Shown: positions 4,929 through 63,902 of the stretch, in pieces
Layout: each line of letters opens with the position of its first letter
Numbering within the stretch: position 1 is the stretch's first letter
DNA from: Octopus vulgaris
Lineage: Eukaryota
Direction of reading: 5' to 3'
DNA length: 64,000 bases
NCBI GenBank assembly: GCA_951406725.2
Contig: OX597818.1
Coordinates: forward strand, 57,412,001 to 57,476,000
Program-made: the position numbers and the translations under genes
The notes under the pieces: model-generated
What the model was told of the DNA's origin: nothing
What the model saw: the letters and a program-made list of their open reading frames with translations, nothing else
Database searches by the model: none

Positions 4929-5528
4929 GGCGGCGAGCTGGCAGAAACGTTAGCACGCCGGGCGAAATGCGTAGCCGTATTTCGTCTGCCGCTACGTTCT
5001 GAGTTCAAATTCCGCCGAGGTCGACTTTGCCTTTCATCCTTTCGGGGTCGATTAAATAAGGACCAGTTACGCACTGGGGTCGATATAACCGACTTAATCC
5101 GTTTGTTTGTCCTTGTTTGTCCTCTCTCTGTTTAGCCCTTTGTGGGTAGTAAAGAAATAGGTATTTTGTCTGCCGTTACGTTCTGAGTTCAAATTCCTCC
5201 GAGGTCGACTTTGCCTTTCATCCTTTTTGGGTCGATAAATTTAGTACCAGTTACGCACTGGGGTTGATATAATAGACTTAATACCTTTGTCTGTCCTTGT
5301 TTGTCCTCTCTGTGTTTAGCGCTTTGTGGGTAGTAAAGAAATAGGTACTTCGTCTGCCGTTACGTTCTGAGTTCAAATTCCGCCGAGGTCGACTTTGCCT
5401 TTCATCCTTCCGGGGCCGATTAAATAAGTACGAGTTACGCACTGGGGTCGATGTAATCGACTTAATCCGTTTGTCTGTCCTTGTTTGCCCCCCTCTGTGT
5501 TTAGCCCCATGTGGGTAGTAAAGAAATA
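4929..5528 (+). mobile_element. SINE family A (GGCGGCGAGCTGGCAG head; CCTTTCATCCTTTCGGGGTCGATAAA core), triplicated body
   Basis: One head plus three ~190-bp bodies. TSD GGTATTGTTRCTCGA at 4912-4926 and 5529-5543. Confidence 0.9.
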
Positions 5529-5789
5529 GGTATTGTTGCTCGATTGGAGCTCAAACTCCATATTTTGTATCCAGATCATCACAGTCGCCATTTTTATATA
5601 ACGAAAGATGAATTTCGGTTGTGTCGGTTTCATATCATTTTTGACGTCAGGTGTATATCAAGTGTACATTTTCCAGTAGACATGGTCGAGTGGTTAAGAA
5701 GATCCTTTTGAAATTACGTGGTTTCAGGATCAGTCCTACTACCACACTGGGCGACGTTTGGCTAAGTGCCTTCTATAGGGGGCAGAGTC

Positions 5790-6232
5790 GTGGTATGCAC
5801 AAAGTCCAGAAGGAGCTACCGAAAATGAGAATTGCAAAATCCTGTGGGATGCAATGAGCCAGTGCGATCAACCGACCAGACATCAGAAACCGGACATTGT
5901 GGTGGTGAATAAAAACAGAAAGAATGTGTATGATAATCGAGATACCACGCCCCCCGGTGAGAACAGGTTCTATGTGAAAGAAGAAGGAAAAATAAACAAG
6001 TATGACGATTTGAAGTGGGAAATACTAAGGTTGTGGTCAATGAAGAGAGTAGACCTGATACCACTAGTCATTGGTGCATCTGGAAGTATCAGCATTCAGC
6101 TACCAGCATGGGTGAAAAAGATCGGTGCAAGAACACCTACAAAAATCAGCATTAACAAGTGTCACCTTAGTCTGCTGGCTGTGGACAGCTGACACTATCC
6201 AACACAACCAGCAAAATACGCTGTGAGTATTC

Positions 6233-18872: not shown

Positions 18873-20020
18873 TGGAAAAATGCAAGCAAGAGCAAATATG
18901 ATATTCTTAAGATTATAAACCTGGAAAAATACAGGACAATTTATTACACTTGGAAAAGTTCAGGACAAGTTATTACATCTAGTAAAGTACGGAACATGAA
19001 ACTTTTAACTTTAAATATTGCAGCTAAGGATGATATTTCAAATAAAATATATAGATTGAGAAAATATGAACTTTTATTGAAGCAAAAATTTTTATTGCAA
19101 ATAATTACTATTTTTTATTACTTGTTACTTCAATTAAAAATTAAAAATAACTCGAAATATTTTTTGCACTTTAAAAAAAAATTCATTCTTAAAAATTATT
19201 AATTAGAAATTTGAAAATAGGTTATAAAAATAACAGTAAATATTTAGTTCAATAAATAGAATAATGCAAAAATTAGTTATATATTACAGTAAAATCTAAT
19301 TATAACAATAAATTCACAGTACAATTTGCTTGAGTTATTGCCACGTCTTCACATTTTTAGTCTTAACCCAATGCCTATCATATATGCTATTCTGTGGAGA
19401 CACATGGCCCTAGTGGTTAGCGCAGCGGACTCGCGGTCGAGGGATCGCGGCTTCGAATCTCAGACCGGGCGATGTGTGTATTTATGAGCGAAACACCTAA
19501 ACCCCAACGCGGCTCAGGCAGAAGGTGATGGCGAACTTCTGCTGACTCTTTCGCCACAACTTTCTCTCATTCTTTCATCCTGCATCTTACAGCTCACTTG
19601 CGACAGACCGGAGTCCCGTCCAGTGAGGAACCTATATGCCAAAGAAACCGGGAAACCGGCCCTATGACCCAGGAGTGCCTCGTGAAGGAACAAAAAAATA
19701 TGCTATTCTATTTTGCATAAAACTTTAGCTACATTGGTACTATTGACTATCAATTTTTTTAAAGTATTCTAGTGTGTTAACATTTTAACAAAATGATGGT
19801 ACCTTTTTAATTATTATATTACTTTGTAAATTAAAATAGAACTATTTTTGATATTCAAATTTTATGCTTAGCTGCAATATTTTAAGTAAAAATATTCTTG
19901 TTCTATACTTTACCAGATGTAATGACTTGTCCTGAAGTTTTCCAAGTGCAATAACTTGTCTTGTAATTTTCCAGGTCTATAATCTTAAGAATATTATTTC
20001 TCTTGCTCGCATTTTTTCAT
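18873..20020. mobile_element. MITE-like element with ~160-bp inverted arms; SINE inserted in the middle
   Basis: ~18873-19035 is the reverse complement of ~19865-20020. Confidence 0.6.
19394..19695 (+). mobile_element. tRNA(Arg)-like SINE
   Basis: Head GTGGAGACACATGGCCCTAGTGGTTAGCGCAGCGGACTCGCGG; TSD ATATGCTATTCT. Confidence 0.8.
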
Positions 20021-24204: not shown

Positions 24205-24604
24205 TAATAATAATAATAATAAAAACATTGTGTACAGGTGCACTACAACTCATCTAAAGTGTATGTATAATCAGGTGTAGTTTCGGCGGATTTCGGAAAG
24301 CATGAGTGCCTTAAAGGATGCAGTGTCATGGCAGTCAACAACTGACGCAGGCAGTTTATTCCATGCTTCAGCAACTCTGAGCGTGAAAAAATGTTTCCGA
24401 AAGTCATGGGAGCTGTGTTATTTTCTGACTTTGTCGGCATGTCCACGTGTGTTGGACACATGGAGATCAAAAAGGTGTTCAGTGTTGTTGTTGGTGAGGT
24501 GGTTGATAACTTTGTGGGTGTTTACAAAATCCATCGACAGACGCTGGAGCTTCAGTGAATCCATGCCCAGGGAAACAAGGCAGAGTATGGTAGGTGTCTG
24601 ATGA
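24205..24604 (-). mobile_element. 3' end of a CR1-like LINE (RT C-terminus + 3' UTR + (ATT)n tail)
   Basis: Minus-strand translation ...SNTRGHADKVRK*HSSHDFRKHFFTLRVAEAWNKLPASVV..SFK shows the CR1-type TRGH...FF..RV...WN.LP signature. Confidence 0.85.
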
Positions 24605-25244: not shown

Positions 25245-25652
25245 ATTTATTGCCCACCAGGGGCTAAACATACAGGGGACCAACAAGGAAGGACAAACGG
25301 ATTAAGTCGATTACACCGACCCCAGTGCGTAACTGGTACTTATTTAATCTACCCCGAAATGATGAAAGGCAAAGTCGACCGCTGCGGAATTTGAAATCAG
25401 AACGTAGCGGCAGACGAAACACCTATTTCTTTACTACCTACAAGGGGCTAAACATAGAGTGGACAAACAAGGACAAAGGGATTAAGTCGATTACATCGAC
25501 CCCAGTGTGTAACTGGTACTTATTTAATCGACCCCGAAAGGATGAAAGGCAAAGTCGACCTCGGTGGAATTTGAACTCAGAACGTAGCGGCAGGCGATAT
25601 GCCGCTAAGTATTTCGCCCGGCGTGCTAACAATTCTGCCAGCTCGCTGCCTT
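25245..25652 (-). mobile_element. SINE family A dimer
   Basis: Matches consensus. Confidence 0.85.
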
Positions 25653-25884
25653 ATCAATGTGTATATTACACTATTTCATTTAGCTGAAACTTGTCTGAAA
25701 ACCAAGTGCAGATACAGGCAAAATTCAGAGTAAGCAGAGACTTAATCCACGAAAATATAACATTATTAATCTCTACAATGATATCGAGTAGACTTTTCTC
25801 TTGAGAGTCAATACTGAACGGTTATATTCGTGTATATACATAGACATCTATCTATCCATCCATTCATCTGACCGTCTATCTATC

Positions 25885-27528
<1,644 letters not shown>

Positions 27529-28318: not shown

Positions 28319-28737
28319 AGGCGCAGGAGTGGCTGTGTGGTAAGTAGCTTGCTAACCAACCACATGGTTCCGGGTTCAGTCCCACTGCGTGGCATCTTGG
28401 GCAAGTGTCTTCTGCTATAGCCCCGGGCCGACCAATGCCTTGTTAGTGGATTTGGTAAACGGAAACTGAAAGAAGCCTGTCGTATATATGTATACATATA
28501 TATATGTATGTGTGTCTGTGTTTGTGTGTCTGTGTTTGTCCCCCTAGCATTGCTTGACAACCGGTGCTGGTGTGTTTACGTCCCCGTCACTTAGCGGTTC
28601 GGCAAAAGAGACCGATAGAATAAGTACTGGGCTTACAAAGAATAAGTCCTGGGGTCGATTTGCTCGACTAAAGGCGGTGCTCCAGCATGGCCGCAGTCAA
28701 ATGACTGAAACAAGTAAAAGAGTAAAAGAGTAAAGAG
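28319..28737 (+). mobile_element. SINE family B, full length
   Basis: Head GGCGCAGGAGTGGCTGTGTGGTAAG...GGGTTCAGTCCC; (GTAAAAGA)n tail. Confidence 0.9.
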
Positions 28738-29824
28738 TATATTTTGTATATATGATTACATCAGCTTACGGGCGCAATAAAATGGTCTCACGAGCGCAAT
28801 TGTTCCCGCGGGCGAGATTTTCACCATCCCTGGTCTAAATGAAAGTTTTAGATGGAAAAATAGGGGATGAAATAACATTTCAAGCATGGCTCTATGTCGG
28901 ATAGAGAAAAAAATCCAAAGAGAAAGAAGAAGAAGCAGATAGACTGAATATATATCTCAAATTGTGTAAATGAGAAAAGAAATACGACTAACCTAACATT
29001 GTGACCCAATATGATCGCAATTCATTGAGCATAACGAATAAAATTTTCACAGGTACTGACACACACGTATCTCTATCTATCTATCTATCTATCTACAGAT
29101 AGATATAAGTAGATATAGACTGATTGATTGAAAAATAGATATGTACTTAGACAGACATCAGACAGATGAATGCATTCGTAAGTACATATTTTCATACGTT
29201 CATAAAGTCATGCTTATGGTGAATCGTTGTACATATACAGTTATAGAGATCTACATACACAGAGGAATATTTACATTCAAAAGTTTATGAACGTTATGAA
29301 AAAATAAAAACATTCCTTTTATCGTTTTCATAACAACTGACTGCTAATCTCCGAAAATGGTTCGTATTCTGTAGACAGAAAACCATTAAAATAATTGATA
29401 AGGAAAAATTATGCCTCTATCAGAGAAAAAGTTCTATAGCTTACAATTTTTAGGGAACAAAGCTTTGTACAAATGACAGAAATACAAAGAAAACTGATTA
29501 TATATAACGCTTTGAAATGAAATAATATTTTAGAAGTGGTCTAATTAAATGTTTAAACTTGCATCGAAAGCCGAAACAATGGGTCCTATATTTTTCTGAG
29601 TCGTAAATAAATAAAACCAAATAAAAATCGCGAATATTTTCAAAATAGTTATTTAGTTTAATGTTAACGTTGTATGAAAGTTTAGTGGAAGGCAGAATAG
29701 CTAAGCTTTTTTTTATTGTGGTTTTGATGTTTGCAATATTCAATTACTTAAGTACATATGCACAATGTAACGGGTTTTCTCAAAGAAAATAAAGTAGAAC
29801 GAAATAAAAACAGATATTGTTTAC

Positions 29825-31109: not shown

Positions 31110-31176
31110 CTTAGTCAGTGATACTCTCTTTTTCACTGGTTCGTGGGGTGATATTCTGACATAGGTCCTTGTACAT
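31110..31176 (-). CDS. Speculative exon fragment ...TRTYVRISPHEPVKKRVSLTK with consensus donor AAG|GTAAGT
   Basis: Strong donor at 31109/31110; open frame back to the AT-repeat cassette; no clear acceptor. Confidence 0.25.
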
Positions 31177-31296
31177 CGAAAATTTTACACAAAAATTTTT
31201 CGAAAATTTTCGCCCAAAAATTTTTCGTAAATTTTCAATGAAAATTTTACCAAAAAATTTTTCGAAAATTTTCACGGAAAATTTTCCCCAATGGAT

Positions 31297-31443
31297 TTCC
31301 ATACTTTGTGATTTTGACACTACTGGCTTTCCATACTTTGTGATTTTGGCACCGCTGGCCTTCCATACTTTGTGATTTTGGCACCGCTGGCCTTCCATAC
31401 TTAGTGATTTTGGCGCCGCTAGCTTTCCATACTTTGTGATTTT
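31297..31443 (+). repeat. 32-bp tandem array TTCCATACTTTGTGATTTTGGCACCGCTGGCC, ~4.6 copies
   Basis: Units start at 31297, 31329, 31361, 31393 and 31425. Confidence 0.95.
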
Positions 31444-31757
31444 CCCGAAAAATTTTCGACAAAAATTTTCGGTTAAAATTCTCGGTGAAAATTTTTGGAT
31501 AGAAATTTTTGAGGAAAATTTTCGAAAAATTTCGGTGAAAATTTTTGGATAGAAATTTCTGGTGAACATTTTCAAAAAATTTTTGGTGAAAATTTTCGAA
31601 AAATTGTTGGGTAAAATTTTCAGTGAAAATTTTTGAAAAATTTGTGGGTAAAATTTTTGGTGAAAAGTTTCGGTGAAAACTTTCGAAAAATTTTGGGGTA
31701 AAATTTTTGGTGAAAATTTTCGAAAACTTTTTGCGTAAAATTTTCGATTAAAATTTT

Positions 31758-31916
31758 CGTCGGAGGAGGCACGCGCGTATACGAACAGCCGCCGACCGGC
31801 CGAGCCCTAGTCGCTCGCCTCAGATTTTGGCACGCCGATTCGTCTTCTTTTTTCCGCTTGGCGGCGGCTACTTCCCGAACTGCCGCGCTTCGTTTTTAAA
31901 CGTGTGTCGTCGGTGA
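31758..31916 (+). other. GC-rich putative 5' ETS fragment of rDNA
   Basis: Lies directly upstream of the 18S 5' end; sharp GC/CpG rise. Confidence 0.6.
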
Positions 31917-31988
31917 TACCTGGTTGATCCTGCAAGAAGTCATATGCTTGTCTCAAAGCTTAAGCCATGCAAGCGTAAATTCATACCG
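31917..31988 (+). rRNA. 18S rRNA 5'-end fragment (~70 nt, pseudogenic)
   Basis: TACCTGGTTGATCCTGCaAGaAGTCATATGCTTGTCTCAAAGcTTAAGCCATGCA is the universal eukaryotic 18S start with a few substitutions; truncated. Confidence 0.93.
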
Positions 31989-32070
31989 TAAATTTTTGGG
32001 TAAAATTTTAGGTGAAAATTTTCGGGAAATTTCTAGGTAAAATTTTTGGGTAAAATGTCGGTGAAAATTG

Positions 32071-32188
32071 CAAAACTCACAAAGTATGGAAGGCCAGCGG
32101 TGCCAAAATCACAAAGTATGGAAGTCCAGCGGTGCCAAAATCACAAAGTATGGAAAGCCAGCGGTGCCAAAATCACAAAGTATGGAAA
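32071..32188 (-). repeat. 32-bp tandem array, inverted orientation, ~3.7 copies
   Basis: CCAAAATCACAAAGTATGGAA units. Confidence 0.95.
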
Positions 32189-32436
32189 TATATTGGGGAA
32201 AATTTTCGTGAAAATGAAAAAAAAAATTTGGGGGGAAAATTTTCGAAAAATTTTTAGGGAAAAGTTTGGGTGAAAATTTTCGAAAAATTTTTGGGGAAAG
32301 TTATCGGTTAAAATTTTCGAAAAGTATTTGGATAAAATTTTCGAAAAATTTTTTGGATAAAATTTTCTGAAAATTTTCGAAAATTTTTTGGGTAAAATTT
32401 TTCGAAAATTCTCACCGAAAATTTTCACCAATGGCT

Positions 32437-32554
32437 TTCCATACTTTGTGATTTTGGCACCGCTGGCTTTCCATACTTTGTGATTTTGGCACCGCTGGCC
32501 TTCCATACTTTGTGATTTTGGCACCGCTGGCCTTCCATACTTTGTGATTTTGGC
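32437..32554 (+). repeat. 32-bp tandem array, ~3.7 copies
   Basis: Units start at 32437, 32469, 32501 and 32533. Confidence 0.95.
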
Positions 32555-33081
32555 AATTTTCACAGACATTTTACCCAAAAATTTTTCGATAATTTTCACC
32601 GAAAATTTTTCGAAAGTTCTCACCGAATATTTTCCCCTAAAATTTTCACCGAAAATTCTACCCCAAAATTTTTCGAACATTTTAACCGCAAATTTTACGC
32701 AAAAATTTTTCGAAAATTTTACCCAAAAATTTTCACCGAAAATTTTCCCCCAATACGTGAGCGTTTGTAGATTTTATATATGTGTATGTATGTGAATGTA
32801 TAAATGTGTGTGTGTGTTTGTGCCCGCGCGCGCATATATTCGTGTATGTGTCCGAGTGTTGAATGTTAAAGTCCAGCTAAGGATAATCATACGTGTAACC
32901 AACCATGAAGAACAAATCAACAGTGTAAAGAAATAAAATATCAATCTCTTTAAAACGGCAACCACTTTAAGGGTACGAGAACCACCATCCTACTACATTT
33001 ACTTTAAAAGGTGGAGCTCCAGTATGTCCGCAGTCAAATGACTGAAACAAATGAAAGAATAGAATATATATATATGCATGC

Positions 33082-33297: not shown

Positions 33298-33710
33298 CGT
33301 AATATGTATACATATATATATGTATGTGTGTGTGTTTGTGTGTCTGTGTTTGTCACCCTAGCATTGCTTGACAACCTGTGCTGGTGTGTTTACGTCCCCG
33401 TCACTTAGCGGTTCGGCAAAAGAGACCGATAGAATAAGTACTGGGCTTACAAAGAATAAGTCCCGGGGTCGATTTGCTCGACTAAAGGCGGTGCTCCAGC
33501 ATGGCCGCAGTCAAATGACTGAAACGAGTAAAAGAGTAAAGAGTATATTTTGTATATATGATTACTTCAGCTTACGGGCGCAATAAAATGGTCTCACGAG
33601 CGCAATTGGTCCCGCGGGCGAGATTTTCACCATCCCTGGTCTAAATGAAAGTTTTAGATGGAAAAATAGGGGATGAAATAACATTTCAAGCATGGCTCTA
33701 TGTCGGATAG
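33298..33710 (+). repeat. Direct duplicate of 28481-28904 (3' half of SINE B plus ~165 bp of non-SINE flank)
   Basis: The flank ...CAGCTTACGGGCGCAATAAAATGG...CTCTATGTCGGATAG is present in both copies. Confidence 0.9.
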
Positions 33711-41890: not shown

Positions 41891-42730
41891 GGATCTTTAC
41901 CCTTTGAACGGCAGATCGAGAAATTAATTTTTTTTTTAATTAAACACTTTCAAACTTCCGACACTTGTAGAATGTGTCATATAAAACATTTTTTCTCTTA
42001 GTGTTCTAGAGAAAATTTTGTATTTTCAAAGTTATTTCGTGTTAAAGTAGTCGTATTTCGGTAATTTCACCCAGTCAATGATGTGTATTCAACTGAATAA
42101 AATTACTGCCGTTGTTTGTCAACAACAACTTCCGGCGGTGTATATTTCGTTTGTCACTGTTATTTATGACATATTTCATCTCAGTTACGTTCGTATGAAT
42201 AAACGAGTCTATCTGAAGCATGTTTACTTCATGGCATCACCATAATCGTTCGAGCATTTCTACTGCTTTTAAGTTTTTTTCCTTGTTTTTCAGCCACTAT
42301 TTTCGGAAATACTTTTTTGCCCACCTTACCCTCCAATTTCATTTTTCCCTGTTTTCCGTAGCTCTAACTCTAAAATACCAACCCTAACTCTAAAACCCCA
42401 ACCCTAACTCTAAAACCCTAACCCTAAAACCAGTACAAGCGCACGAACGATGTCATAAATAACAGTGACAAACGAAATATACACCGCCGATAGTTGTTGT
42501 TGACAAACAACGGAAGCAATTTTATTCAGCTGAGTACACGTCATTGATTGGGTGAAATTACCGAAATACGACTACTTTAACACGAAATAACTTTGAAAAT
42601 ATAAACTTTTCTGAACAACGCTAACAGTAAAAGATGTTTTATATGACTCATACTACCAGTGTCCGACGTTTGAAAGTGTTTAGTTACAAAAAATTAATTC
42701 ATCGATCTGCCGTTCAAAGGGAAAAGATCC
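41891..42730. mobile_element. Palindromic MITE, GGATC...GATCC termini, 8-bp TSD (Merlin-like)
   Basis: TSD AATATCAG on both sides; ~300-bp inverted arms; central (TAACCC/TAAAACCC)n. Confidence 0.85.
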
Positions 42731-43599: not shown

Positions 43600-44195
43600 G
43601 TTTGCCCACAAGGGGCTAAACATAGAGGGGACAAGCAAGGATAGACAACCGGCTCAAGTCAATTACATCGACCCGAGTGCGTGACTGGTACTTAATTTAT
43701 TGACCCCGAAAGGATGAAAGGCAAAGTCGACCGCGGCGGAATTTGAACTCAGAACGTAACGGTAGACGAAATACCTATTTCTTTACTACCCACAAGGGGC
43801 CAAACACAGGGAGGACAAACAAGGACAGACAAACTGCTTAAGTCGATTATATAGACCCCAGTGCGTAACTGGTACTTTTTCAATCGACCCCGAAAGGATG
43901 AAAGGCAAAGTCGACCTCGGTGGAATTTGAACTTAGAACGTAACAGCAGACGAAATACCTATTTCTTTACTACCCACAAGGGGCCAAACACAGTGGAGAC
44001 AAACAAGGACAGACAAACGGATTACGTCCATATATATATCGACCCCAGTGCGTAACTGGTACTTAATCTATCGACCCCGAAAGGATGAGAGGCAAAGATG
44101 ACCTCGGCAGAATTTGAACTCAGAACGTAACGGCAGACGAAATACCGCTAAACATTTCGCCCGGTGTGCTAACGCTTCTGCCAGCTCACCGCCTT
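43600..44195 (-). mobile_element. SINE family A trimer
   Basis: Three bodies and one head. Confidence 0.85.
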
Positions 44196-44546: not shown

Positions 44547-44973
44547 AATTAAATAATATTTTTCGAACAGCGTAAATAAAACGCAAAGTAAATAATTTTT
44601 TAAACTAAGTAAATAAAATTATTTTTTAAAACAATGTATATAATTTTTTACACAAATTAAATATTTTTCGAACAACGTAAATAAAACGCAAAGTAAATAA
44701 TTTTTAAAACTAAGTAAATAAAATTATTTTTTAAAACAATGTATATAATTTTTTTACACAAATTAAATATTTTTCGAACAACGTAAATAAAACGCAAAGT
44801 AAATAATTTTTAAAACTAAGTAAATAAAATTATTTTTTAAAACAATGTATATAATTTTTTTTACACAAATTAAATATTTTTCGAACAACGTAAATAAAAC
44901 GCAAAGTAAATAATTTTTTAACCTAAGTAAATAAACTATTTTTATAAACAAACTAAGGTTAGGGTTAGGGTTA
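44547..44973 (+). repeat. ~107-bp AT-rich tandem repeat, ~3.7 copies, followed by GGTTAGGGTTAGGGTTA
   Basis: TTTTTCGAACAACGTAAATAAAACGCAAAGTAAAT recurs four times. Confidence 0.9.
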
Positions 44974-47424: not shown

Positions 47425-48072
47425 GGATCTTTACCCTTTGACCGACAGATTTAGATAATGATTTTTTGTAACTAAACACTTTCAAAGTTAGGACACTGGT
47501 AGAATGTGTCATATAAAACATCTTTTACTTTTAGCGTTTTTGAGAAAAGATTATATTTAGGAAGTTATTTCACGTTAAAGTTGTAGTATTTCGGTAATTT
47601 CAACCAATCAATGACGTGTATTCAGCTGAATAAAATTTCTGCCGTTGTTTGTCAACAACAACTATCGGTGGTGTATATTTCATTTGTCACTGTTATTTGT
47701 GGCATCTTTCGTGCATTCGTACTGGTTTTAAGGTTTTAGGGTAAGAGTCAAGGTTTTAGGGTTAGGGTTAAGGTTTTAGGGTTAGGGTTAACATATATAA
47801 CAGTGACAAACAAAATATACAACGCCAGAAGAAGTTGTTGTTGACAAACAACTGCAGTAACATTATTCAGCTGAATACACGTCATTGATTGGTTGAAATT
47901 ACCGAAATAGGACAACTTTAACGTGAAATAACTTCGTAAATATAAGTTTTTCTCAAAAATGCTAAGAGTAAAATATGTTTTATATGACACATTCTACCAA
48001 TGTTCAAAGTTTGAAAGTGTTTAGTTACAAAAAAATTATTTTTTAAATCTGTAGGTCAAAAGGTTAGGATCC
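47425..48072. mobile_element. Palindromic GGATC-terminal MITE with central TTAGGG-like repeats
   Basis: Same family as 41891-42730, opposite internal orientation. Confidence 0.85.
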
Positions 48073-51269: not shown

Positions 51270-51720
51270 GTATTTCTTTACTACCCACAAGGGGCTAAAC
51301 ATACAGGGGGCAAACAAGGACAGACAAACGGATTAAGTCTATTACATCGACCCCAGTGCGTAATTGGTACTTAATTTATCGACCCCGAAAGGATGAAAGG
51401 CAAAGTCGACCTCGGCGGAATTTGAACTCAGAACGCAGCAGCGGACGAAATACCGCAAAGCATTTCTCCCGGCGTGCTAACGTTTCTATATCTTTTACTA
51501 CCCACAAGGGGCTAAATACAGAGAGGACAAACAGGACAGACAAACGGATTAAGTCGATTATATCGACCCCAGTGCGTAACTGGTACTTATTTAATCGACC
51601 CCGAAAGGATGAAAGGCAAAGTCGACCTCGGCGGAATTTGAACTCAGAACGCAGCAGCGGACGAAATACCGCAAAGCATTTCTCCCGGCGTGCTAACGTT
51701 TCTGCCAGCTCGCCGCCTTT
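51270..51720 (-). mobile_element. SINE family A dimer
   Basis: TSD TACATAAAATACGT. Confidence 0.9.
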
Positions 51721-52324: not shown

Positions 52325-52735
52325 GCGAGATGGCAGAATCGTTCGCATGCCGGGTTAAATGTTCAGCACTATTTCGTCTGCCGTTATGTTCTGAGTTCAA
52401 ATTCCGCCGAGGTCGACTTTGCCTTTCATCATTTCGGGGTCGATAAAACAAGTATCAGTTACGCACTGGGGTCGACATAATCAACTTAATCCGTTTGTCT
52501 GTCCTTGTTTTCCGCCCTCTGTGTTTAGCCCCTTGTGTGCAGTAAAGAAATAGGTATTTCGTCTGTTGCTACGTTCTGAGTTCAAATTCTGCCGAGGTCG
52601 ACTTTGCCTTTCATCCTTTCGGGGTCGATTAAATAAGTACCAGTTACGCACCGAGGTCGATATAATCGACTTAATCCGTTTGTCTGTCCTTGTTTGTCCT
52701 CTATGTGTGTAGCCCCTTGTGGGCAGTAAATAAGA
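52325..52735 (+). mobile_element. SINE family A dimer
   Basis: Matches consensus. Confidence 0.85.
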
Positions 52736-54312: not shown

Positions 54313-54700
54313 GTGGAGGCGCAATGGTCCAGTGGTTAGGGCAGCGGACTCGCGGTCATAGGATCGCGGTTTCGATTCCCAGACCGGGCGTTGTGAGTGT
54401 TTATTGAGCGAAAACACCTAAAAGCTCCACGAGGCTCCGGCAGGAGATGGTGGTGATCCCTGCTGTACTCTCTTTCACCACAACTTTCTCTCACTCTTAC
54501 TTCCTGTTTCTGTTGTACCTGTATTTCAAAGGGCCGGCCTTGTCACTCTCTGTGTCACGCTGAATATCCCCGAGAACTACGTTAAGGGTACACGTGTCTG
54601 TGGAGTGCTCAGCCACTTACACGTTAATTTCACGAGCAGGCTGTTCCGTTGATTCGGATCAACCGGAACCCTCGTCGTCGTAACCGACGGAGTGCTTCCA
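54313..54700 (+). mobile_element. SINE family C, full length
   Basis: GTGGAGGCGCAATGGTCCAGTGGTTAGG...GGTTTCGATTCC A/B boxes; TSD ~ATTCTACT. Confidence 0.9.
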
Positions 54701-58216: not shown

Positions 58217-58597
58217 GGAGGCGCAATGGCCCAGTGGTTAGGGCAGCGGACTCGCGGTCGTAGGATCGCGGTTTCGATTCCCAGACCGGGCGTTGTGAGT
58301 GTTTATTGAGCGAAAACACCTAAAGCTCCACGAGGCTCCGGCAGGGATGGTGGTGATCCCTGCTGTAATCTTTCACCACAACTTTCTCTCACTCTTTCTT
58401 CCTGTTTCTGTTGTACCTGTATTTCAAAGGGCCGGCCTTGTCACTCTCTGTGTCACACTGAATATCCACGAGAACTACGTTAAGGGTACACGTGTCTGTG
58501 GAGTGCTCAGCCACTTACACGTTAATTTCACGAGCAGGCTGTTCCGTTGATTCGGATCAACCGTAACCCTCGTCGTCGTAACCGACTGAGTGCTTCC
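58217..58597 (+). mobile_element. SINE family C
   Basis: Full length; TSD ATTGCAAAGCA. Confidence 0.9.
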
Positions 58598-58740: not shown

Positions 58741-59156
58741 AGGTGGCGAGCTGGCTGAAACATTAGCACGCTGGACGAAATGCCTAGCGGTATTGCGTCT
58801 ACCGCTACGTTCTGAGTTCAAATTCCGCCGAGGTTGACTTTGCCTTTCATCCTTTCGGGGTCGATTAAATAAGAACCAGTTACGCACTGGAGTCGATATA
58901 ATCGACTTAATCCGTTTGTCTGTCCTCGTTTGTCCCCTCTATGTTTAGCCCCTTATGGGTAGTAAAGAAATAGGTATTTCGTCTGCCGCTACGTTCTGAG
59001 TTCAAATTCCGCCGAGGTCGACTTTGCCTTTCATCCTTTCGGGGTCGATTAAATAAGAACCAGTTACGCACTGGAGTCGATATAATCGACTTAATCCGTT
59101 TGTCTGTCCTCGTTTGTCCTCTCTGTGTTTAGTCCCTTGTGGATAGTAAAGAAATA
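58741..59156 (+). mobile_element. SINE family A dimer
   Basis: TSD CAGATTCGTTGACAA. Confidence 0.9.
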
Positions 59157-60073
59157 GGTGGCAGATTCGTTGACAATTCTCTCTTGGTGAGAATAATACT
59201 TCAATACTGATATGCAAGGTATACGCCAAGGTGTTAGTGCAAAGCATGTACGTAGAAAGATATCCTGCTGCCGATTGTTTAAAATGCATTCACCATGTGA
59301 CACAATCTCCAAGCAGTTTTCAGATCTGTGATTTCTGATAAATACTCGACGTTTACAAACATATTTTTAAGATACCGTGATTTTTCATGATATTTTGTTA
59401 GGAATGATGAACTTTCCATAACACAACGTGTGATGAAGATCAATATAGTTGCTAAATTCTAACTTAATATATTTCAAACCATCGTTGAAACCTGAAATAG
59501 CAAATTGAATAATTTTGAACTATAAAGGTCGAAGGGAAAAGTCTCCATTCTTGTAATCATAGATCCAACTAACTTCTACTTTTCATTTGTCAATTGGACA
59601 TTCTTCAGAATTTCATGTAATCTTCATGCTTTGATAAAAGTTCAGAAATACACGTAACTAGGAAATGTATGCTGACAGATTTAATATCTCCACCACTACA
59701 AGACTTGCGTAAAGCAACTGGTAGCGACAAATGTTGTGTATCTCCTCTCCTTCCAAATTTCAGATTCACAACTTGATTCACAAAATGTTTACTTGCTTTA
59801 GAATTATTTGACTCTGGCAAACCCATTGCCTGTATCGTGTATAAACTACAACAATCGGAAAAAATAATATTTGCAATGGTCTGCTTTCGTGTTTAGCCAA
59901 ACAAGTAATATTATATGATACAACGCAAAACGAAGTGTGGTGTTTAACATTCTTCTATGTAATCAACTTTCAGATTTTATTGTGGTAACTATGTTTATCT
60001 ACAGCTGTATACTATTCACATACAAAATAATCCCGCTGACAATGATCTGAACAGCAATGGACACCATGCAAAT

Positions 60074-63802: not shown

Positions 63803-63902
63803 NNNNNNNNNNNNNNNNNNNNNNNNNNNNNNNNNNNNNNNNNNNNNNNNNNNNNNNNNNNNNNNNNNNNNNNNNNNNNNNNNNNNNNNNNNNNNNNNNN
63901 NN
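63803..63902. other. Assembly gap (100 N)
   Basis: N run. Confidence 1.

Follow-up and report, generated by a model that had tools for sequence, protein, structure and literature searches.

A truncated 18S rRNA gene start among inverted pieces of a higher-order repeat in Octopus vulgaris, most likely a dispersed and rearranged rDNA fragment

Fragments and pseudogenes of ribosomal DNA (rDNA) that are dispersed in a genome are termed orphons. Pseudogenised fragments of this kind are regarded as genomic junk, rDNA is also found in transposable elements, and its spread is ascribed to ectopic recombination or to the integration of circles (PMC10946416, in excerpt). The spacers and some ETSs are filled with tandem repeats (10.1101/2023.02.20.529178, in excerpt), and repeats derived from the intergenic spacer (IGS) are described as satellites outside rDNA in tomato (excerpt of PMC2679016) and as 200-bp repeats in Pokey (excerpt of PMC10946416). 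Two other systems resemble the block described below in their modular build. Complete Foldback elements, of which Tetris is an example, have long modular terminal inverted repeats, a middle domain and target-site duplications of 8-10 bp (excerpt of PMC4079207), and in mollusc satellites the junctions lie in palindromes and parts of the monomer are replaced by unrelated sequence (excerpt of PMC5139131). For octopus or other cephalopods, the literature searched (most subscription journals lie outside it) yielded no description of an rDNA spacer, satellite, foldback or dispersed rDNA fragment, and a search combining octopus with foldback found none. Likewise, the excerpts of the O. vulgaris genome paper (PMC10700109) contain neither 'rDNA' nor 'satellite', and those of an octopus ribosome paper (PMC13321053) hold nothing on 18S, ETS or spacer.

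We analysed a 64-kb window of the O. vulgaris genome (64,000 nt of contig OX597818.1), in which a cassette of ~1.6 kb (31176-32753) forms a patchwork of flipped repeat pieces around an 18S/ETS piece. The features are collected in Table 1; the 32-bp arrays were found by Tandem Repeats Finder, and the AT modules have periods of 12-13, 24-25, 37 and 50. Most likely, the block is a real case of an already known kind, namely a dispersed, rearranged rDNA fragment. The initial annotation had seen here a modular fold-back cassette of 32-bp arrays. Its layout stands insofar as three such arrays (+,-,+) lie among AT modules; the cassette as a whole, however, is not a fold-back, since both outer AT modules are C-rich on the top strand.

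Table 1. Features of the cassette and of the rDNA piece within it (positions in the 64-kb window).
Feature	Positions	Strand	Basis or remark
Initial ~116 bp of AT module A1 (top strand C-rich)	31176-31291	-	G 8, C 20 over 31174-31291; left cassette end at TCGA
32-bp array 1, 4.8 units, final unit cut short	31292-31443	+	Tandem Repeats Finder; 115/120 identical to array 3
AT module A2, expanded to ~316 bp, G-rich from ~31466	31444-31759	+	G 56, C 18 over 31466-31759
GC/CpG-rich 157-bp segment, 5′ ETS (3′ end) as judged by position	31760-31916	+	Composition; adjoins 18S position 1
Truncated 18S rRNA gene start, first 71 nt	31917-31987	+	RF01960 match; right junction set by register test
AT module A3, G-rich, 3′ part of the module	31988-32070	+	Subunit register kept with the end of A2
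32-bp array 2, 3.6 units, within the left inverted arm	32071-32189 (Tandem Repeats Finder: to 32187)	-	Tandem Repeats Finder
AT module A4, G-rich, near full length	32190-32404	+	86% to A6 over 196 aligned bases; polarity switch around TCGA at 32403
AT module A5, C-rich, short stub	32405-32431	-	
32-bp array 3, 3.9 units, within the right inverted arm	32432-32555	+	Tandem Repeats Finder
AT module A6, C-rich, complete ~200-bp module	32556-32753	-	Cassette end is exactly the module/array boundary motif

The foreign rDNA piece, as delimited by side-by-side comparison of its flanks, measures 228 bp (31760-31987; 157 bp upstream plus 71 nt of 18S). The presence of an 18S start, suspected beforehand, is confirmed: positions 31917-31992 correspond to positions 1-76 of the Rfam model SSU_rRNA_eukarya (RF01960; score 56.9 bits, cut-off 50, E 2e-15), of which the 71 nt up to 31987 belong to the piece. 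This match surfaced only when an 88-base stretch was scanned alone against Rfam. A scan of the entire 64-kb window gave 0 matches and missed the short 18S piece, and a scan of a 2.3-kb stretch gave 101 matches, the 18S piece not being one of them; the miRNA and snoRNA matches of the latter scan fell far short of the gathering scores, and we discarded them as effects of composition. No other rRNA match in the 64-kb window reached the Rfam gathering threshold, in a scan that is insensitive to short internal fragments. Directly upstream of the 18S, the GC-rich stretch of ~160 bp that had been proposed as ETS is indeed found, with 157 bp, 60.5% GC and a CpG observed/expected ratio of 1.67 (34.3% and 1.05 for the window); we assign it to the ETS by position alone, in that it abuts 18S position 1. 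The remaining GC/CpG-rich patches listed in the window resemble, by eye, SINE heads or simple repeats. The region 31760-31989 has no unusual fold (z +1.5; 186/200 shuffles fold equally well). A protein-level search with the ETS/18S reading returned no candidate and BLAST against phages no match, while BLAST against plasmids gave 3 records, 2 of which match the 18S start only and 1 of which is a weak 27-nt match.

Mature 18S rRNA does not contain the upstream 157 nt, and for this reason the piece must stem from rDNA or from unprocessed pre-rRNA. It had been suggested that a mobile element captured the pre-rRNA 5′ processing junction. The piece crosses the ETS/18S boundary and neither of its ends falls there; there is therefore no sign of selection for the processing junction, and this suggestion is not upheld. 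Counted by eye, 6 mismatches to Rfam fall at strongly conserved positions within the first 67 nt of the 18S, and the G6-C18 pair of helix 1 is broken. Since this load exceeds the ~3% divergence of array 2 from array 3 (binomial p 0.015), some of these differences from the Rfam consensus may reflect either change of the 18S specific to the lineage or decay of greater age. The homology to rRNA is significant, the gene is truncated at nt 71 and the piece lies outside the rDNA array. The block is thus like other dispersed rDNA fragments in that a truncated rRNA-gene piece with its upstream spacer lies among ordinary repeats; it differs from them in that its piece is very short and is enclosed by blocks of a higher-order repeat in inverted orientation.

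The repeats around this piece are better read as parts of one building block, a ~320-bp higher-order unit made of a ~200-bp AT module and about four 32-mers, of which three inverted pieces are present here. The motifs at the module/array boundary, at 32418 and 32739, are 321 bp apart. On the basis of G/C counts, the polarity of the cassette is reverse over 31176-31443, forward over ~31466-32404 and reverse again over 32405-32753, the switch within A2 lying near 31457-31470. Within the window the unit is confined to the cassette: the AT-subunit motifs occur 41 times in it and 0 times elsewhere, and BLAST within the 64-kb window found no second cassette copy and no other recurrent cassette stretch. 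Pairwise, the three arrays are 109/116 to 115/120 identical (94-97%), and they have position-specific unit variants in common, in unchanged order. They are therefore copies of one homogenised master array and not local expansions. The AT modules are less uniform than the arrays (81-91% identical to one another), so that the differences between modules were for the most part probably present already in the source. The higher uniformity of the arrays hints at constraint or at stronger homogenisation in the source array.

Evidence for the unit elsewhere comes from a protein-level search. The translation of array 3, compared with 1.84 billion representative proteins, gave 3 matches, one of which is CAI9724350.1, a 78-residue gene model of O. 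vulgaris ('hypothetical protein') located on a 135.6-Mb sequence and not encoded by the window. The two others (44% and 40% identity) are unrelated repeat peptides and were dropped. In CAI9724350.1, 30/33 residues match the array reading and 7 of the final 10 agree with an AT-module frame, while its middle matches all cassette frames poorly (10/20, 5/16). The combination of array and AT-module readings with a poorly matching middle points to another copy of the unit, or to the corresponding locus of a related species; being mostly array and AT-module translation, the entry is likely a spurious gene model. Among longer proteins, 0 of 3 candidates matched the array reading and, among near-length proteins, 1 of 2 did; the ESM Atlas gave no usable match to the octopus peptide. 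A 22-nt part of the unit hit 1 locus in GTDB, a lone match in a Bacillota MAG that neither array nor AT module accompanies and that we rejected as chance, and the same 22-nt motif was in no paper searched. The family of 32-mer and AT module appears to be undescribed in the literature searched.

With moderate confidence, we interpret the block as a one-off, non-functional rearranged rDNA orphon, whose repeats would putatively derive from the ribosomal intergenic spacer. A scrambled rDNA-spacer orphon was one of the two origins initially proposed, and it fits the anatomy, with the spacer origin kept as putative. The main argument is one of co-occurrence: we infer that a low-copy higher-order repeat next to an ETS/18S piece would be expected for spacer DNA and would be rare otherwise. 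The truncated 18S start, the SINE- and microsatellite-rich surroundings, the lack of a second copy of any cassette stretch in the 64 kb, the descent of the arrays from one master array, the 321-bp spacing and the array with adjoining AT-module reading in CAI9724350.1 also count in favour of the orphon. Similarly to the IGS-derived satellites (PMC2679016 and PMC10946416, both in excerpt), the block has subrepeat arrays beside broken rRNA coding sequence, away from intact units; it differs from them in that its IGS origin is putative and in that its arrays, of 4-5 units, alternate with AT modules. A further difference is that no retrotransposon or Pokey transposase was seen here among 147 ORFs.

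A further argument is provided by the 11-mer GATTTTGGCAC, found at 31823-31833 in the ETS-like segment and also in the 32-bp unit. This sharing had been spotted at the outset and is real and weakly significant. An 11-nt match was reached in 5/5000 shuffles, and three other sites of the window also share some 11-mer with the unit. Gapped extension adds an 8/9 match just upstream, and the score of the extended motif compares, under four schemes, with 9, 8, 50 and 162 of 2000 shuffles (p 0.004-0.08) and, on real background, with 7, 3, 8 and 51 of 395 windows. The ETS-like piece thus contains a degenerate unit-like motif in sense orientation, which lends weak support to a possible kinship of the unit with rDNA. 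Animal ETSs are several hundred nt long, and within 100 bp of the 18S one expects ETS rather than promoter. Since the 11-mer occupies the positions 84-94 bp ahead of the 18S start, it gives no support to an enhancer role, and the earlier idea that the 32-mers are Pol I enhancer-like repeats draws nothing from it.

As to how such an orphon could have arisen, what can be read directly are the parts and their polarity, the 321-bp spacing of the units, the truncated 18S and the absence of inverted outer ends. From there, three inverted pieces of the ~320-bp unit would have been joined to the 228-bp piece, likely via break repair or template switching. The near-palindromic AT subunits of 12-13 bp would offer microhomology in both orientations, so that a repairing strand could jump between modules and flip. 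Junctions are not significantly clustered at the palindromic subunit centres (TTCG/TCGA; 2/5, p 0.20). The product, a linear or circular rDNA-derived fragment, may have integrated once into SINE-rich non-coding DNA. Other observations also speak against this explanation: the AT-module register is continuous across the rDNA piece, as if the piece had been inserted cleanly into a module already in place; the AT modules that flank the piece are oriented such that the array belonging to them runs in the opposite sense to the ETS motif; and CAI9724350.1 has no rDNA reading (best 5/16, in its middle segment).

The first of these observations leads to the strongest alternative, a possible but distinctly less probable one. 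Here, the unit of AT module and 32-mer would be a satellite unrelated to rDNA, or a decayed transposon arm, already rearranged when templated insertion filled a break in one of its AT modules with 228 bp copied from rDNA or pre-rRNA. With flanks of 40 nt, the join of the modules across the rDNA piece ranks 1/40 offsets against A6 (69/80, next 62) and 1/40 against A4 (63, next 62), and shares 2nd-3rd place against A1 (60 vs 63); with flanks of 30 nt, it ranks first against A6 and A1 and is tied 2nd-4th against A4. The register is thus kept with a loss of ~1 nt, which is suggestive of a clean patch into one AT module and favours the insertion somewhat; it fits this alternative at least as well as the spacer orphon. 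Its weight is reduced, on the other hand, by the fact that the register is fixed only to within multiples of 37 bp (joins missing one whole period score 68 vs 69). With three near-junction offsets countable, the probability of such a match by chance is ~0.08, and with the shorter flanks the join is not the top one against A4. The shared polarity of the modules on either side of the rDNA piece and the position of its left junction, at a TTCG site, also suit an insertion. So does the precedent of mollusc satellites with palindrome junctions and replaced monomer parts (excerpt of PMC5139131). Indeed, the block is like these satellite/Helitron mosaics in its short arrays, abrupt junctions, interrupted monomers and palindromic subunits, as far as the excerpt describes them; it differs in that the interrupting sequence is rDNA and that the enrichment of palindrome junctions is not significant. 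In CAI9724350.1, too, module-like readings are separated by 16 residues that do not read as module, but this could be an exon-joining artefact. Moreover, this alternative requires two rarities to coincide in one place, a repeat of low copy number and inserted rDNA, and the weak similarity between ETS and unit would then be a coincidence.

A second alternative, which we consider improbable, is that of a non-autonomous Foldback or Mutator-like element with modular arms, carrying ETS/18S cargo and present as a rearranged copy; a Foldback-type element was the other origin put forward by the initial annotation. The inverted copies on which that proposal drew are real. The arms 32015-32208 and 32416-32609 are 91% complementary over 194 nt with a spacer of 207 nt, their core (32039-32187 and 32437-32585) is identical at 145/149 positions, and the segment 31990-32753 folds into a strong internal hairpin (-274 kcal/mol, z -37; 0/20 shuffles equally stable). 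The arms are built of 12-13-bp subunits with 37-bp periodicity and 32-bp arrays, and rearranged forms are frequent among Foldback elements (excerpt of PMC4079207). However, the outer ends of the cassette are direct (local score 95 direct, 70 inverted; terminal matches 9/15 and 24/40), and no exact target-site duplication of 4-15 bp was found, the only candidate among 120 end combinations being a 3-mer, with ~2 expected by chance. No transposase domain is present in the 147 ORFs of the window (at least 62 aa, low-complexity and SINE-derived frames removed), for which Pfam gave no match at cut-off and 2 weak sub-cut-off matches, neither in the cassette. The rDNA piece lies to the left of the inverted pair and not between its arms, the spacer there being an AT module. 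An inner element at 32193-32753, with inverted module ends and TA on both sides, was also considered. The unit that contains its left TA has kept its length of 32 bp, so that this TA reads as a substitution and not as a duplication, and the candidate was down-weighted. Compared with Tetris, FB and TFB1 as excerpted in PMC4079207, the block has in common the modular short-subunit arms, the internal tandem repeats, the strong hairpin, the rearranged forms and the lack of an ORF; unlike them, it is without outer terminal inverted repeats and without an 8-10-bp target-site duplication, and its foreign piece does not occupy a middle domain.

Equally improbable, in our view, is a bolder version of the spacer origin, according to which the unit would be an octopod rDNA spacer repeat turned into a self-dispersing, palindrome-driven element that escapes from the nucleolar array, inverts at its own subunits and repeatedly moves short rDNA cargo, including the ETS/18S junction, to other chromosomal sites; transcripts of the hairpin could in this case be a source of small RNAs directed at pre-rRNA.

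Assembly is known to be error-prone at rDNA and at inverted repeats. A chimera at the level of the assembly or of the reads, with rDNA reads joined to unrelated sequence, would be in line with the scaffold gap of 100 N in the window (63803-63902) and with the 424-bp direct duplicate nearby (see below), but we regard it as very unlikely: the inverted arms differ from each other (91% overall, 97% in the core), are separated by the 207-nt spacer and have copy-specific variants, unlike a fold-back read, no Ns occur within 31 kb of the block, and several distinct junctions are found within 1.6 kb. Finally, an ordinary colinear stretch of an rDNA unit, for which the left part (A2, ETS-like segment and 18S start) could be in native order, deserves hardly any credence, as the 18S ends at nt 71 and is followed by an AT module, the polarity flips twice, and the window holds no further rRNA match at gathering threshold (scan insensitive to short internal fragments).

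The cassette is flanked by tRNA-headed SINE-like repeats, which we take to be octopus SINEs, and by microsatellites. SINE-like repeats often form head-to-tail dimers and trimers with a period of 180-216 bp (4977-5534, 25259-25597, 43605-44146, 51277-51703, 52370-52730 and 58789-59159), and a further tRNA-headed SINE-like family was recognised by eye in close copies at 19401-19540, 54321-54460 and 58221-58360. No tRNA gene was called in the window by ARAGORN. Two short frames (5779-6192 and 24243-24601), presumably remnants of non-LTR retrotransposons by their appearance to the eye, gave no Pfam match. A 424-bp direct duplicate (28481-28904 and 33298-33710, 96%) brackets a 4.4-kb block that includes the cassette; it consists of a SINE 3′ part and ~160 bp that are unique in the window, within a stretch that is 98% identical. 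Its possible origins are a duplication in place, a scar left where a circle integrated and a haplotype artefact. At 25877-27526, there is a nearly pure (TA)n tract of 1.65 kb with 823 copies, suggesting a long-read assembly. A second AT-rich modular array, unrelated to the cassette, is located at 44555-44951 (period 106, 3.8 copies, 96%, with subperiods of 21-37 bp). In addition, short arrays with a period of 20 bp and telomere-like words of the TTAGGG type are found on opposite strands at 42364-42431 and 47728-47791.

Interpreted as a rearranged rDNA orphon, the block carries little biological weight, stray rDNA pieces and spacer-derived repeats being known debris. If its origin from the spacer is true, the 32-mer and the AT module would mark the cephalopod rDNA spacer. 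If, beyond that, many copies of the unit carried rDNA cargo, they would reveal a way for rDNA to establish itself at new sites of a large genome rich in repeats.
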